Source: an uncultured Candidatus Peribacteria bacterium (GTDB lineage Bacteria > Patescibacteriota > Gracilibacteria > UBA1369 > LOWO2-01-FULL-3). From it: DNA of 64,000 nt. The notes under the pieces were generated by a model. It did not search any database, was not told where the DNA came from, and saw only the letters and a list, made by a program, of their open reading frames with translations. The stretch covers positions 12,455 to 76,454 of the forward strand of contig CAZGHH010000001.1 in the NCBI GenBank assembly GCA_964525485.1. Direction: 5' to 3'. A program made the position numbers and the translations under genes. This document shows, in pieces, positions 37,630 through 42,501 of the stretch (position 1 is its first letter; every line of letters starts with the position of its first letter).

Positions 37630-38664
37630 TTAAATAATTATCATTGCGTCACCGAAGCTAAAAAATCTATATTCATTTTTTTTTGCAATTTCATATAATT
37701 CCAGAATTTTTTTTGTGCCATCAATTTTGAGTCCGTGCTGCTGACATTTATATTCTATAAATGAAGCAACAAGCATGATCAAAGTACTCTTGGGCAGGTG
37801 AAAATTTGTAATTAATTTATCGGTAAATTTCCACTGATATCCTGGATAAATAAAAATATTAGTATCGGCAGCTTTGGGTTTCAAAATTCCTTTTTCACAA
37901 GAAGTTTCAAGTACTCTCACACTGGTAGTCCCTACAGCAACGATATTTTTTCCCGCATTTTTTGCGCGATTCAATTTTTCAGTGGTGGTATCATCAATTT
38001 GAAAAAATTCGCTATGCATTTCATGATCAACAACGTCATCAGTTCTGACTGGTAAAAAAGTGCCCAGTCCCACATGTAATAAGACAGTTTCTACGTCAAC
38101 ACCATTGGACTTTAATTTTCTCAGTAATTCATCAGTAAAATGAAGTCCGGCAGTAGGTGAGGCCACGCTTCCTTTTTCGACAGCATAGACAGTTTGATAA
38201 TCATCCAAAGAAGCGTGTGAGTCTTTTATATAAGGAGGAAATGGAGCTTCTCCGAAGGACTCTATATTGTGATCAGAGTAAAATCTAATGATTCTCGTGC
38301 CGTTAGACAAAATATCGAGAATTTCAAAAATAAAAATTCCATTATTTTTTTTAACAGAGACTTTCAACCCTTTTTTGAATTTTCTTCCGGGTTTCACCAG
38401 ACATTCATACACATTATCAGCTACACATTTTAATAAAAAAATCTCACATCCATCAAATAAAATTCTGGCTTTTATAACTTTCGATCTATTCAAAACCAAA
38501 ACATCTTTAGACGAAAGATAATTAACAATATCTCTAAAAAGACAGTGTTTAACAGCTAAAGTCTTAGAATCAAATATCAAAAGCTTCGCAGAATCTCTAG
38601 GATTAGCGGGATCCTTGGCTATAAAACTATCTGGCAAAGCGTAATCGAAATCGGATAATCTCAT
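37630..38664 (-). CDS. queA: S-adenosylmethionine:tRNA ribosyltransferase-isomerase
   Basis: 344 aa. MRLSDFDYALPDSFIAKDPANPRDSAKLL N-terminus and AVGTTSVRVLE block. ATGA overlap with the upstream phosphatase gene. Confidence 0.92.
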   Translation of the reverse strand: MRLSDFDYALPDSFIAKDPANPRDSAKLLIFDSKTLAVKHCLFRDIVNYLSSKDVLVLNRSKVIKARILFDGCEIFLLKCVADNVYECLVKPGRKFKKGLKVSVKKNNGIFIFEILDILSNGTRIIRFYSDHNIESFGEAPFPPYIKDSHASLDDYQTVYAVEKGSVASPTAGLHFTDELLRKLKSNGVDVETVLLHVGLGTFLPVRTDDVVDHEMHSEFFQIDDTTTEKLNRAKNAGKNIVAVGTTSVRVLETSCEKGILKPKAADTNIFIYPGYQWKFTDKLITNFHLPKSTLIMLVASFIEYKCQQHGLKIDGTKKILELYEIAKKNEYRFFSFGDAMIII

Positions 38665-40104: not shown

Positions 40105-42501
40105 TTATTTATAGTTAAAATGTTTTTTTGTTGAGTGAAGAAATCCTTTTATACTTTCGATTTCTTCTGGTTCGTCCACCAAACTATACAGCATTTTGAA
40201 ATAATTTAAATACTTCTTGCCGACATACTCTGCAGATTTGGATTGAGTTTTTGTTAATAGTTTATTTATTTTAGCTGAAACGATCTGCTTTAATTCAGAT
40301 TCTATCGTAGTACGCATTTTATAAGGCAGATTTTTAATATTCTTTTTTAAATTTTTTCTCATCGCATCATCCGCTACAAAAAATAATTCAATTAATTTTT
40401 CCACAGATTTTACATATCCCATTTTCGCAATAGCGATTGCTGAGAACATTTGAAGTTTTAGATCATCGGATTTAAGTAGGTTTAGACAAAATGAATGTTT
40501 TGATTTCAATTTCAATTCACCTATTGCAAAAACGCCGGCCTCTATCAGTTTTTTATTTTCTGATTCGAGCATGAGATTCAAATTCAAAACAAGAGCATCA
40601 TAAAAATCATCATATTTCCAAAGTGAAATAATGGCCGCCGCTCGTTCATAAGATTTCTTTGAATTCAAAAACGGCTGTATGTATGAAATAACACTTCTAT
40701 CCTTGTACTGCCCAAGAGCCAAAATCACATCCGCCTTTAATGAATTTTTTGCCTTACTTAGTATGTTTATCAAGAATCCAAAAGTCCCTATTGGATTTAA
40801 TTTTGAAAGCAAATGTATTATTAATGATTTCACTTCCTGATTCCTTTCAGATTTATAAAGTTTTTTCAAAGATTCAGCTATTTTGTATTCATAAAATATA
40901 TTTTTATGCAAAAACTTTTTAATATCGTCATAACCCAATATCGCATCCAAAGCGGCCATCCTGAATTCAGGATTTTTCGACTCCAAAACATTTAATATAT
41001 CATCAATAGCATCGTAATCTTGTAATTCTTTTAGAGCCGAGAGCACTTTTAGTCGTATAAAATCGGGCTCTTTTGAATTATTTAAAACTTTTAAAAGAAC
41101 GGGAAGAGCGGATTTGTGTCCTTTTTGCGCGAGAATATCTATTGATTCAATCCTATCAATCCTGTCTTCGGAGGTTAGTAAATTTGAAGCCGCAACTTTT
41201 GTGTATTTGTCCTGAAGGGCATAAGTGACTACAAAAAGACCGATTAAAACAAAAATCATCGTAAGATTGATCGCAAGAGTCAGGTCAGAATCTAGTTTAA
41301 AAACATTTTGTAATAATATTAAAATACCGGTTCCAAGAATAGCTCCAAACGGCCTAGCCATGCCTTCCAAAAATTCCCTGGTATGCTCTCTGAAATGCTC
41401 TTTCACTGAATAGTAAGCGGAATGATAAGCATTAATATGAATAATTTGACCTATTGTTTTATTAGCCTGGGCAAGTACAGCGGTATTGAAATTAAACCTG
41501 ACAGTCAAACCAAATATGCTAAGAAGCATCAGGATAGGGTGAACCAACATGCTGCCTATAATACCAAGAGACGAGATCAGTCTTCCTCCGACAAAGAACT
41601 GAACAAACAAAGCCGCAACATTAAACAAAATAAACAATGCTCCCAAATCATGCACCAAAGCGTGCTCAAAGCCACTTCCGGAATTGAGAACGGCAGTCGA
41701 AATATTTTTTACAACAGCCTTTGTGTATTGGAATTCTATTAAATTCGAAAAGATCCATTGAAAAATCACAACAAAGAAAAGCCCTTTAATAAAAGATACC
41801 TGTCTTATTTGGTGAGATATATCCTTGAATTTTTCTAAGATCGAAATATGTTCATGCTCAGTTGTTTTTTTACCAATAAAAATTTTAGGGACAGATTTTA
41901 AAGAAAACCTATAATAAAAAATACAGGGAAGAATTAACAAAAGAGCCAGAATCCAAATATAAACAAACTTCACAGGATCTATAGAAGCGGAAAACCCAAC
42001 AACAAGAAGACCTGCAATGATGCCTCCTATAGTTTCGGCTGATTCTATAAAAGAAAAAGTCCTTTCACTTTCAAGTGGCGTAAATAAGTTTTCCACGAAC
42101 CCGTTTAATATGATTTTAAACTGCACCAGGAAGATCGAAATTGCCCCCAAAAGTAATCCAAAAAAAACAACATCGTTTTTACCACTAAAAAAAGCGGAAA
42201 AAAGCAATATCCAACAAGACAACATAATACTCCAAAACATTATTTTCTCCTTAGAAAATCTATCTATAAAAGTCATGTAAAACAAAGATCCCAAGACGGT
42301 AAAAACTCCATTCACGATAAATAAAATAGGTAAATTCACTATTCCGTATCTGCCAACAAACATGCCTACGATCATAGTCCACCCGACCACAAACCCCATT
42401 CTATAGAAGAAATTAATTCCCCAAGAAAGAGCCACTCTCGAGAATTCCATTCTATTGATATTGAAAAGCTTTTCGAGTAAAGATACAGGTTTGATATTCA
42501 T
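40105..42501 (-). CDS. Polytopic transporter-like domain (MFS/TLC nucleotide-transporter-like) fused to C-terminal HEAT repeats
   Basis: 798 aa. About 12 hydrophobic helices in the first approx. 440 aa, then repeated HEAT/PBS-lyase-like units (ALPVLLKVLNNSKEPDFIRLKVLSALKEL...; NPEFRMAALDAILGY...; ERAAAIISLW...). The transporter family is a tentative assignment. Confidence 0.5.
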   Translation of the reverse strand: MNIKPVSLLEKLFNINRMEFSRVALSWGINFFYRMGFVVGWTMIVGMFVGRYGIVNLPILFIVNGVFTVLGSLFYMTFIDRFSKEKIMFWSIMLSCWILLFSAFFSGKNDVVFFGLLLGAISIFLVQFKIILNGFVENLFTPLESERTFSFIESAETIGGIIAGLLVVGFSASIDPVKFVYIWILALLLILPCIFYYRFSLKSVPKIFIGKKTTEHEHISILEKFKDISHQIRQVSFIKGLFFVVIFQWIFSNLIEFQYTKAVVKNISTAVLNSGSGFEHALVHDLGALFILFNVAALFVQFFVGGRLISSLGIIGSMLVHPILMLLSIFGLTVRFNFNTAVLAQANKTIGQIIHINAYHSAYYSVKEHFREHTREFLEGMARPFGAILGTGILILLQNVFKLDSDLTLAINLTMIFVLIGLFVVTYALQDKYTKVAASNLLTSEDRIDRIESIDILAQKGHKSALPVLLKVLNNSKEPDFIRLKVLSALKELQDYDAIDDILNVLESKNPEFRMAALDAILGYDDIKKFLHKNIFYEYKIAESLKKLYKSERNQEVKSLIIHLLSKLNPIGTFGFLINILSKAKNSLKADVILALGQYKDRSVISYIQPFLNSKKSYERAAAIISLWKYDDFYDALVLNLNLMLESENKKLIEAGVFAIGELKLKSKHSFCLNLLKSDDLKLQMFSAIAIAKMGYVKSVEKLIELFFVADDAMRKNLKKNIKNLPYKMRTTIESELKQIVSAKINKLLTKTQSKSAEYVGKKYLNYFKMLYSLVDEPEEIESIKGFLHSTKKHFNYK

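Follow-up and report, generated by a model that had tools for sequence, protein, structure and literature searches.

What does a partner switch of the kind that normally controls a sigma factor act on when its genes sit beside one for a carrier-like membrane protein? The locus that raises this question comes from the small genome of an uncultured Candidatus Peribacteria bacterium, and it bears on an open issue, the targets of sigma-B-less Rsb systems such as that of Chlamydia. Hardly any work has addressed signal transduction in candidate-phyla-radiation bacteria, whose genomes keep very few regulators. An earlier note on this DNA had proposed that a STAS protein binds the HEAT-repeat tail of the membrane protein and thereby gates nutrient or nucleotide uptake. 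We examined the 64,000-nucleotide stretch that carries the locus (the window), the rest of its genome and related genomes; a literature search found no paper on this linkage of a membrane protein with STAS and PP2C genes.

A tight four-gene array and its membrane protein

Four minus-strand genes, taken from the open reading frame list and the sequence, lie in a tight array that encodes an MFS-fold/HEAT membrane protein, the STAS protein (STAS1), a 2TM-HAMP-PP2C phosphatase and QueA (Table 1). Rereading the junctions reproduced the packing described in the earlier note: a 2-nt gap between the membrane-protein gene and STAS1 (TAA-tt-ATG), a 1-nt overlap between STAS1 and PP2C (TAATG) and a 4-nt overlap between PP2C and queA (ATGA). 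The span given there, 38661-42501, is right for the first three genes but omits queA. A single operon is the best explanation of this layout, and the stop/start overlaps suggest coupled synthesis of neighbouring products. A well-placed promoter-like site precedes the array in the gap to the divergent murJ, its 10 of 12 matches being weak evidence; a promoter and terminator scan of the region gave no more sites than the shuffled expectation. The queA product scores 387.7 bits against the NCBIfam QueA model (cut-off 324), which identifies a tRNA preQ1(34) S-adenosylmethionine ribosyltransferase-isomerase. This gene comes next after PP2C in most relatives and is probably a passenger, functionally unrelated to the switch genes.

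Table 1 Coordinates of the switch-related features in the window
Feature	Position	Strand	Basis
798-aa MFS-fold/HEAT membrane protein	40105..42501	-	ORF, Pfam, AF2 model, Foldseek
STAS1, 119 aa	39743..40102	-	ORF, Pfam, NCBIfam
2TM-HAMP-PP2C phosphatase, 360 aa	38661..39743	-	ORF, Pfam, motifs
queA, 344 aa	37630..38664	-	ORF, NCBIfam
Promoter-like site TTAACA-17-TAAAAT	42583..42611	-	103-nt gap, divergent murJ / 798-aa gene
RsbW-like serine kinase / anti-sigma-type HATPase	49957..50484	+	HATPase_c_2 45.5 bits
STAS2, 143 aa	50491..50922	+	Pfam STAS 51.9 bits
PrsW-family intramembrane protease	50922..52028	+	Pfam PrsW-protease 69.9 bits

The 798-aa product is, as the earlier note had read it, a transporter-like protein with C-terminal HEAT repeats. 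Pfam finds HEAT_2 (81 bits, four stretches, from residue 441) and HEAT_PBS, and a profile search of the PDB matched alphaRep and HEAT proteins (E 1e-29). Residues 58-340 give a weak MFS_1 match of 25-27 bits, under the Pfam cut-off of 33.4; two orthologues reach 45.6 and 34.1 bits. In the AF2 model (pLDDT 87.4, pTM 0.83, 12 TM helices), a 12-helix MFS-fold domain spans residues ~17-443 and a cytoplasmic HEAT-repeat solenoid spans ~447-797, with the tail packed confidently on the membrane domain. Foldseek matched the model to SV2A, NTT1, NorA, LmrP and MelB (E 1e-6 to 1e-4), with an NTT1 structure in the top three, in a set of matches that does not separate NTT from other MFS carriers.

Classing the membrane domain by HMM, as the earlier note had proposed, gave an MFS fold that is not detectably TLC/NTT. 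The Pfam TLC model (PF03219) found no match in the N-domains of five orthologues at E<=10 or in 21 genomes translated in six frames at E<=1, and an N-domain profile run against PDB chains found no NTT; we therefore rejected the TLC/NTT class. Because the domain is not TLC/Npt by HMM, the idea of nucleotide uptake is without basis here. STAS regulation by homology to SulP carriers was likewise discarded: the membrane domain is MFS-fold rather than a SulP/SLC26 domain with a fused C-terminal STAS, and the STAS here is a separate gene.

The closest described counterparts of this architecture are the NTT-HEAT and NTT-HEAT-cNBD fusions, widespread proteins whose function is uncharacterised (Major, Embley & Williams 2017, PMC5381601). 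They share with the 798-aa protein a twelve-helix carrier domain followed by a C-terminal PBS-lyase-type HEAT solenoid (PF13646/PF02985/PF03130), and a signalling domain that typically comes next after, or is fused to, the carrier gene; NTT1 structures are also among the top fold matches of the 798-aa protein. They differ in that the TLC model goes unmatched by the 798-aa protein too, and in that its signalling neighbours are STAS and PP2C, not cNBD. Some orthologues carry the JGI label 'HEAT repeat protein/ATP/ADP translocase'. A profile search with the 798-aa protein returned 6965 matches at E<=0.001; the best 150 of these 6965 representatives were all close relatives, and the lowest-ranked among the matches listed combined MFS_1 with HEAT. 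A related-locus search with the A1 query returned only Peribacteria/Peregrinibacteria/Gracilibacteria records, and one with the divergent f21 query gave eight matches.

A phospho-switch with one kinase

STAS1 is nearly all STAS domain (PF01740, 48 bits, residues 20-113), and it scores 49.4 bits against the NCBIfam anti-sigma factor antagonist model TIGR00377, just under the cut-off of 53.45. The conserved serine that the earlier note had picked out (FINS*ESIGYL, asterisk after the residue) falls at the phospho-acceptor position in the alignment, in the loop that precedes helix 2, and 17 of 17 orthologues keep it. STAS1 has RsbV/SpoIIAA-type features: a single STAS domain, an acceptor serine, and a kinase and a PPM phosphatase in the same genome.

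The 360-aa phosphatase was also read correctly. Its SpoIIE/RsbU-type PPM domain (PF07228, 141 bits) carries metal-binding motifs D175-x-T-G-H-G, D297-G298 and D350-D351 that are invariant in 38 orthologues. Ahead of this domain lie two TM helices, an extracytoplasmic loop of only ~8 aa and a HAMP linker. Pfam does not call HAMP in this protein; the HAMP motifs (P63; R87-x-D89-E90-x-G92...F97-F98-N99) are invariant or nearly so in the 38 orthologues, and in alignment this region matches the HAMP that Pfam does call in a 540-aa PP2C paralogue. To judge from its topology, the 360-aa enzyme has no sensor of its own. The paralogue, by comparison, combines HAMP with a large domain outside the cytoplasm that gives a weak dCache_1 match. 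A 509-aa gene adjoining the paralogue looks solute-binding-protein-like by eye.

The kinase lies in a second operon, 7.5 kb away, with STAS2 and PrsW. It is a genuine member of its family, with RsbW and SpoIIAB as its best NCBIfam matches, and is the sole match over cut-off in the genome. STAS2 is the kinase-linked, highly conserved copy, with the motif EYMNS*KSIGYLTDWY, whose N-S is invariant in 16 of 16 sequences, and its stop overlaps the PrsW start. Conservation of the RsbW-STAS2 pair extends across the order, and the RsbW-STAS2-PrsW(-like) triad occurs in most sampled families. A STAS tree resolved three well-supported clades, of which those of STAS1 and STAS2 are distinct; the tree is unrooted, and the STAS proteins of a sister order (f24) may on this basis be orthologous to either. 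The whole-genome inventory is thus a single RsbW-like kinase with two each of STAS proteins and PP2C phosphatases.

This inventory resembles the chlamydial Rsb system of RsbU, RsbV1, RsbV2 and RsbW, which has two RsbV proteins and no SigB (PMC4552016, PMC11619594). Both have a single RsbW-type kinase and two STAS paralogues of one domain each that carry the conserved serine, one of them kinase-linked and conserved and the other lineage-variable. Both also have a membrane PP2C whose sensor domain lies outside the cytoplasm (here the 540-aa paralogue), lack a SigB/SigF-type sigma factor and belong to small, host- or partner-dependent genomes. The Peribacteria system differs in its second, sensor-less PP2C, placed in an operon with the MFS-HEAT protein, and in a kinase operon that ends in a PrsW protease.

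The earlier note had described a module with no sigma factor. This holds within the window, and no SigB/SigF-type (group 3) sigma factor was found in the genome (97% complete, in 54 contigs), but the genome does have sigma factors. Four Sigma70_r2 matches lie on contigs other than that of the window; the sigma complement consists of RpoD, a pair of ECF-type factors and a 500-aa protein that is sigma-like. After both ECF genes, the next gene encodes a membrane protein that is likely to be an anti-sigma factor, judged from position and TM segment only. The make-up of the module is chlamydial as supposed, but because sigma factors and the RsbW-STAS2-PrsW operon are present, a conventional sigma output is possible.

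Conservation of the gene linkage

Of the 151 genomes of the order, 139 encode the membrane protein and all 151 a PP2C orthologue. Both genes fall on one contig in 107 genomes, with PP2C directly downstream on the same strand in 100; 55 of these have the two genes in direct succession and 45 have a STAS-sized gap between them. The other 7 of the 107 are alignment-length artefacts (G036, the one inspected, proved adjacent). Gaps between the membrane-protein and STAS genes are 1-26 nt in 45 loci, and where STAS1 is lacking the membrane-protein and PP2C genes meet in stop/start overlaps (-4, -8). A conserved, tightly spaced unit that recurs in >100 genomes is far beyond chance. The co-occurrence check that the earlier note suggested bore out the membrane protein-PP2C linkage order-wide, with queA after PP2C in most relatives; STAS1 is absent from ~10 of 19 families.

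In those families, a full-length HEAT-tailed protein is kept directly upstream of PP2C. STAS1 is therefore dispensable in the order, and the HEAT tail is independent of it. The genes also part company in other ways: the membrane protein occurs without PP2C (f18, genus g48), and STAS1-PP2C occurs without the membrane protein in some genomes (f6, G033). In the order, the divergent murJ and the downstream queA show about the same level of conservation, and so does the RsbW operon, at a distance of 4-10 kb. Since unrelated neighbours are kept to this degree, the order-level linkage could be inherited synteny, and such synteny alone is weak evidence.

In f24, the sister order, every genome that encodes the membrane protein (5 of 5, from 3 genera) pairs its gene with a STAS gene; the flanks differ, and PP2C is not adjacent. 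Because the pair survives this change of surroundings, the membrane protein appears to be tied in some way to the STAS/PP2C genes. Six other f24 genomes carry a TM-PAS sensor in the membrane protein's slot, upstream of STAS. Neither STAS nor PP2C genes occur within 7 kb of the more distant f21/f22 homologues.

What the linkage may mean

We tentatively favour a role for the membrane protein as co-sensor or scaffold, passing a signal into a partner switch like that of Chlamydia. The linkage kept in relatives suggests that it is connected to the only serine phospho-switch in the cell, and the persistence of STAS without it, together with its replacement by a TM-PAS protein, points to an input role over that of a gated output. 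From the observed gene content, spacing, conservation and domain identities, we infer every protein-protein contact and signalling direction in the scheme that follows. The first three operon products would together be the membrane arm of the one partner-switching network in the genome, with the MFS-fold/HEAT protein as a 'trigger transporter' that reports substrate or transport state to the sensor-less PP2C, to STAS1 or to both. The 2TM-HAMP-PP2C would dephosphorylate STAS1, which could then compete with STAS2 for the single kinase. Such competition may shift the targets of RsbW/STAS2, namely the primary sigma factor, as proposed in Chlamydia; the PrsW protease encoded in the same transcript, and through it ECF anti-sigma factors; or a target that is not a sigma factor.

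Transporter co-sensors are familiar from UhpC-UhpB, BceAB-BceS and DctA-DcuS. These too place a two-TM, near-loopless signalling enzyme beside a transporter-like gene, but the Peribacteria enzyme is a partner-switch PPM phosphatase, not a histidine kinase. Signalling from sensor to phosphatase can be neither the ancestral nor the sole function of the membrane protein-STAS pair, because most f24 genomes have neither PP2C nor a small RsbW-type kinase. That the serine phospho-switch is physically coupled to the HEAT-tailed MFS/NTT-like protein, whether as sensor or as gated target, is possible if doubtful. If so, a conserved operon that links the sole phospho-switch with a carrier-like protein would reveal what these cells sense or control, a 'sigma-factor' switch would act at the membrane on nutrient exchange in minimal bacteria, and the widespread, uncharacterised HEAT-tailed carriers (PMC5381601) would gain a testable role.

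A weaker but serious candidate is that there is no functional link. Here an ordinary Chlamydia-like Rsb system would act on the primary sigma factor or, via PrsW, on ECF anti-sigma factors, and the MFS-HEAT gene would be a mere conserved neighbour, kept like murJ and queA by compact, slowly rearranging genomes. The similar retention of murJ and queA, the independent losses of cluster genes and the unlinked f21/f22 homologues all fit, as does the presence of sigma factors, likely ECF anti-sigma genes and a conserved RsbW-STAS2-PrsW triad. However, the f24 pair persists after a change of both flanks, a TM-PAS protein takes the same position, stop/start overlaps suggest coupled synthesis, and a sensor-less PP2C needs some input.

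The gating proposal of the earlier note, in which the transporter is the output, we consider unlikely. STAS1, in one phospho-state set by RsbW and PP2C, would bind the HEAT solenoid and gate MFS uptake. This would suit the tail's cytoplasmic position and confident packing on the MFS domain, the short gaps between the two genes and their adjacency in f24, where no PP2C accompanies them. SulP carriers are under STAS-domain control, and non-sigma STAS switches exist: HenR/All4160 in Anabaena (PMC13555669), SypA/SypE and BtrUVW (reviewed in PMC8256260). In these, as might be the case here, phosphorylation of a STAS domain is controlled by a PP2C together with a kinase, and the partner of that domain is not an alternative sigma factor; their targets are a glycosyltransferase or biofilm or T3SS regulators, whereas the Peribacteria candidate is a carrier-like membrane protein. 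Against gating, the families without STAS1 keep a full-length HEAT tail, and some genomes retain STAS1 or its f24 counterpart where the membrane protein is missing and a PAS sensor replaces it.

Least probable of all is that the membrane protein serves as substrate or anchor of PP2C. The enzyme would dock on the HEAT solenoid, much as PR65 is the HEAT scaffold of PP2A, and dephosphorylate cytoplasmic loops with STAS1 as an accessory competitor; direct, overlapping adjacency in many families without STAS1 and best-conserved membrane-domain stretches at the cytoplasmic ends of TM4/5 and TM10/11 fit this, but the membrane protein showed no conserved Ser/Thr site, f24 keeps it without any PP2C, and SpoIIE/RsbU-type PPM phosphatases are known to act on STAS proteins.

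A predicted operon of a HEAT-tailed, carrier-like protein and phospho-switch genes

Direct reading of the sequence gave the same tight junctions between the four minus-strand genes that the earlier note had described (TAA-tt-ATG, TAATG and ATGA along the operon), and Pfam and NCBIfam matched its HEAT, STAS, PP2C and queA calls. The first STAS protein (STAS1) scored 48 bits against Pfam STAS, the phosphatase 141 bits as a SpoIIE-type PP2C and the queA product 387.7 bits, above the NCBIfam equivalog cut-off for QueA. HEAT_2 was found in four stretches from residue 441 of the large membrane protein (81 bits), hereafter the MFS-HEAT protein.

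Genes discussed here, with positions in the window unless a contig (C) or a locus (L) of another genome is named
Feature	Position	Strand	Product and source
MFS-HEAT gene	42501-40105	minus	798 aa, ORF list
STAS1 gene	40102-39743	minus	119 aa, ORF list
PP2C gene	39743-38661	minus	360 aa, ORF list
queA	38664-37630	minus	344 aa, ORF list
ATP-grasp/carboxypeptidase fusion gene	35255-37627		~790 aa
RsbW-like kinase gene	49957-50484		
RsbW-STAS2-PrsW(-like) triad	49957-52028		
Second SpoIIE-type PP2C gene	C18:13764-15386	minus	540 aa
ECF-type sigma gene with the following single-TM gene	C19:15545-18112		
ECF-type sigma gene with the following single-TM gene	C9:11425-12976		
TM-PAS gene, sister order (example)	L068:2726-3361	plus	
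STAS gene, sister order (example)	L068:3420-3773	plus	
Polytopic protein after STAS, sister order	L060:9931-11385	plus	~480-510 aa
Polytopic protein after STAS, sister order	L065:8611-11668		~480-510 aa

The class of the membrane domain, posed earlier as TLC/Npt versus MFS, came out on the MFS side: MFS_1 reached a sub-threshold 25-27 bits here and, at 45.6 and 34.1 bits, passed its threshold for some of the orthologues, and the TLC model matched neither this protein nor the orthologues tested. An AlphaFold2 model built on a 67-sequence alignment (pLDDT 87.4, pTM 0.83) placed twelve long helices at residues 17-443 and a helical-repeat solenoid at 447-797. Searched against the PDB with Foldseek, the model returned MFS carriers, led by SV2A, Arabidopsis NTT1 and Chlamydia pneumoniae NTT1 (E 1e-6 to 4e-6), with NorA, LmrP, MelB and others close behind. 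A profile of the N-domain found nothing significant in the PDB; the HEAT part gave strong matches to alphaRep and PBS-type HEAT proteins. At E<=1e-30 an exhaustive profile search yielded 485 representatives, a number that grew to 6965 at E<=0.001; the best 150 of these 6965 are all of the same MFS-HEAT type. The membrane domain is most conserved at residues 137-153 and 359-384 (FTPLESERTFPxIES; YHSSYY...R..REFLEG..RP.G). These stretches are located where TM4/5 and TM10/11 meet the cytoplasm, not at the usual MFS motif-A loops.

HEAT-tailed NTT-like carriers adjoining signalling domains are known (PMC5381601). These NTT-HEAT fusions, one of them in C. trachomatis, are uncharacterised, and a cyclic-nucleotide-binding domain often comes next to them or forms part of the same protein (PMC5381601). 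They have their architecture in common with the MFS-HEAT protein but are defined by the TLC domain, for which the MFS-HEAT protein was tested and gave no match.

The source genome spans about 1 Mb over 54 contigs and is 97% complete; related records are titled Candidatus Peribacteria, Peregrinibacteria or Gracilibacteria. In this genome the STAS genes number exactly two, a single RsbW-type kinase passes the cut-off, and there are two SpoIIE-type PP2Cs and two PrsW homologues. The operon's PP2C begins with a pair of hydrophobic helices joined by a link of ~8 residues. The earlier note called it HAMP-like; Pfam made no HAMP call, but a HAMP signature (P63, R87-x-D-E-x-G92, F97-F98-N99) varies little or not at all across 38 orthologues, and the region aligns with the Pfam-positive HAMP of the 540-aa paralogue. 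The catalytic Asp motifs are invariant in these orthologues. That paralogue, encoded outside the window and found in most genomes of the order, has a clear HAMP and a large extracytoplasmic domain that matches dCache_1 weakly; it is the network's RsbU-like sensor phosphatase. Directly upstream of its gene is one for a 509-aa product that, read by eye, resembles a solute-binding protein.

Gene order in the order and beyond

All genomes compared were metagenome-assembled, and contig breaks end many loci. Within the order, the MFS-HEAT protein was found in 139 of 151 genomes and an orthologue of the 360-aa PP2C in all 151. Combined coordinates from 126 genomes placed both genes on one contig in 107, and in 100 of these the PP2C gene follows immediately on the same strand, with no room between in 55 and a STAS-sized gap in 45. 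In the remaining seven, partial alignment of the MFS-HEAT protein makes the gap look larger; in genome G036, the sole one inspected, the two genes are in fact adjacent.

The full four-gene order is kept less widely than the MFS-HEAT-PP2C adjacency. Taking one locus per family together with STAS counts per genome, MFS-HEAT-STAS1-PP2C(-queA) occurs in families f1, f2, f5, f10 and f19, and STAS1 is missing from ten others (f3, f4, f7, f8, f9, f12, f13, f14, f16 and f17), which have MFS-HEAT-PP2C(-queA) and a single small STAS, of the RsbW-linked type where sampled. The least certain of the ten is f9, one genome of which has a second STAS match of ~125 aa on another contig. Family f18 has MFS-HEAT-queA without PP2C; f6 and one f2 genome (G033) have STAS1-PP2C without MFS-HEAT. 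The same pattern recurs in 65 further public loci (45 with STAS and PP2C, 8 with PP2C directly), where genes are spaced by 1-26 nt gaps or overlap by 4-8 nt. Three operon-bearing contigs (L075, L086 and L132), which public MAGs place in Saccharibacteria, Nitrospirota and Methanosarcinales bins, are probably mis-binned. In several families the ATP-grasp/carboxypeptidase fusion gene lies near queA or the MFS-HEAT gene (loci compared: L050, L052 and L053), and its persistence reads as a further sign of synteny throughout the region in this order.

Among 401 genomes of the phylum, the MFS-HEAT protein was confined to its own class, save for one 3.7-kb contig of another bin with the same gene order, which we take to be mis-binned. 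Distant homologues in f21 and f22 (about 25% identity) had no STAS or PP2C gene within 7 kb. In the sister order f24, the protein occurs in 5 of 12 genomes, these five coming from three genera, and in all five the gene is directly followed by a same-strand STAS gene for a product of 121-128 aa (Pfam STAS 51.8 bits). The pair is flanked upstream by a MiaB-like gene and by neither murJ nor queA; no PP2C gene adjoins any of the five pairs, 11 of the 12 genomes have no SpoIIE-type PP2C, and a small RsbW-like kinase was found in two.

In six f24 genomes without MFS-HEAT, the STAS gene still occupies the same position behind the MiaB-like gene. Its upstream same-strand neighbour there encodes a ~200-aa protein with one TM helix (L067-L072); a PAS domain scored 47.6 bits in the L068 copy, the sole one scanned, and the other five are alike by their opening residues. 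Genomes with this TM-PAS protein mostly have neither PP2C nor the small RsbW-like kinase. In f24 the STAS gene is followed by a gene for a polytopic membrane protein with no Pfam match; genome G548 has two paralogous, convergent copies of it.

An unrooted tree resolved three well-supported STAS clades: STAS1 (by PP2C/MFS-HEAT), STAS2 (by RsbW) and the f24 proteins. The acceptor Ser, pointed out earlier in STAS1, is retained in all three, with Thr in one f24 sequence.

Input, output or bystander

Two features argue for a functional tie between the MFS-HEAT protein and parts of the phospho-switch: the MFS-HEAT-STAS pair outlasts a change of both flanks, and stop/start overlaps join the gene to PP2C where STAS1 is missing. 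Our preferred, tentative reading is that the MFS-HEAT protein may be an input, feeding the phospho-switch as co-sensor or scaffold and not as a gated output. This is favoured by the lack of a sensor domain in the 360-aa PP2C when its paralogue has one, by an MFS-HEAT-PP2C adjacency wider within the order than that of MFS-HEAT with STAS, and by the classic sensor protein (TM-PAS) that replaces MFS-HEAT in f24. The main weakness of the input reading is also f24: its genomes mostly lack both enzymes, so the pair's role there cannot run through the phosphatase.

The neighbourhood might also reflect mere synteny, with a Chlamydia-like output. The chlamydial Rsb network comprises a sensor RsbU, RsbV1, RsbV2 and RsbW without SigB (PMC4552016, PMC11619594), the same part list as in this genome (sensor PP2C, two STAS, one RsbW, no SigB). 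The flanking genes, divergent murJ on the upstream side and queA on the downstream side, are kept about as well as the cluster genes, and the RsbW operon is often 4-10 kb away, so order-level synteny is no proof of function. The persistence of the f24 pair amid rearranged flanks speaks against this account, which we rate as somewhat less likely than the input reading.

The model first proposed, in which a phospho-switched STAS protein binds the HEAT tail and gates the transporter, appears improbable. Nothing in the gene pattern marks STAS1 in particular as the tail's partner: about half of the families dispense with STAS1 and still keep a full-length tail, and STAS1 stays with PP2C where the MFS-HEAT protein is lost. 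That the MFS-HEAT protein is a substrate or anchor of PP2C would be more doubtful still. Partner switches that lack sigma-B are known, as are STAS switches whose partner is not a sigma factor (PMC8256260, PMC13555669, PMC11619594). Our literature search found no paper describing a partner switch combined with a HEAT-tailed carrier.

The kinase operon and sigma factors

Pfam and NCBIfam identified the kinase named in the earlier note as an RsbW/SpoIIAB-like HATPase. Its gene is followed by STAS2 and then by a PrsW-family protease gene whose start overlaps the STAS2 stop. Conservation of this triad across the order (loci L139-L156), together with the almost invariant STAS2 motif EYMNSKSIGYLTDWY, suggests that the kinase/STAS2 pair is tied to the intramembrane protease.

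The absence of a sigma factor, also reported earlier, is true for the window; the genome has Sigma70_r2 in four places, namely RpoD, a sigma-like protein of 500 aa and two sigma factors of the ECF type. None of the SigB/SigF type turned up in the genome's 54 contigs (97% complete). Both ECF-type genes lie outside the window, and the gene that comes after each of them encodes a membrane protein with one TM segment, likely an anti-sigma factor as judged by position and TM segment only. The PrsW-family protease possibly acts on these putative anti-sigma proteins. The one on contig C9 has an extremely acidic, Asp/Glu-rich tail.
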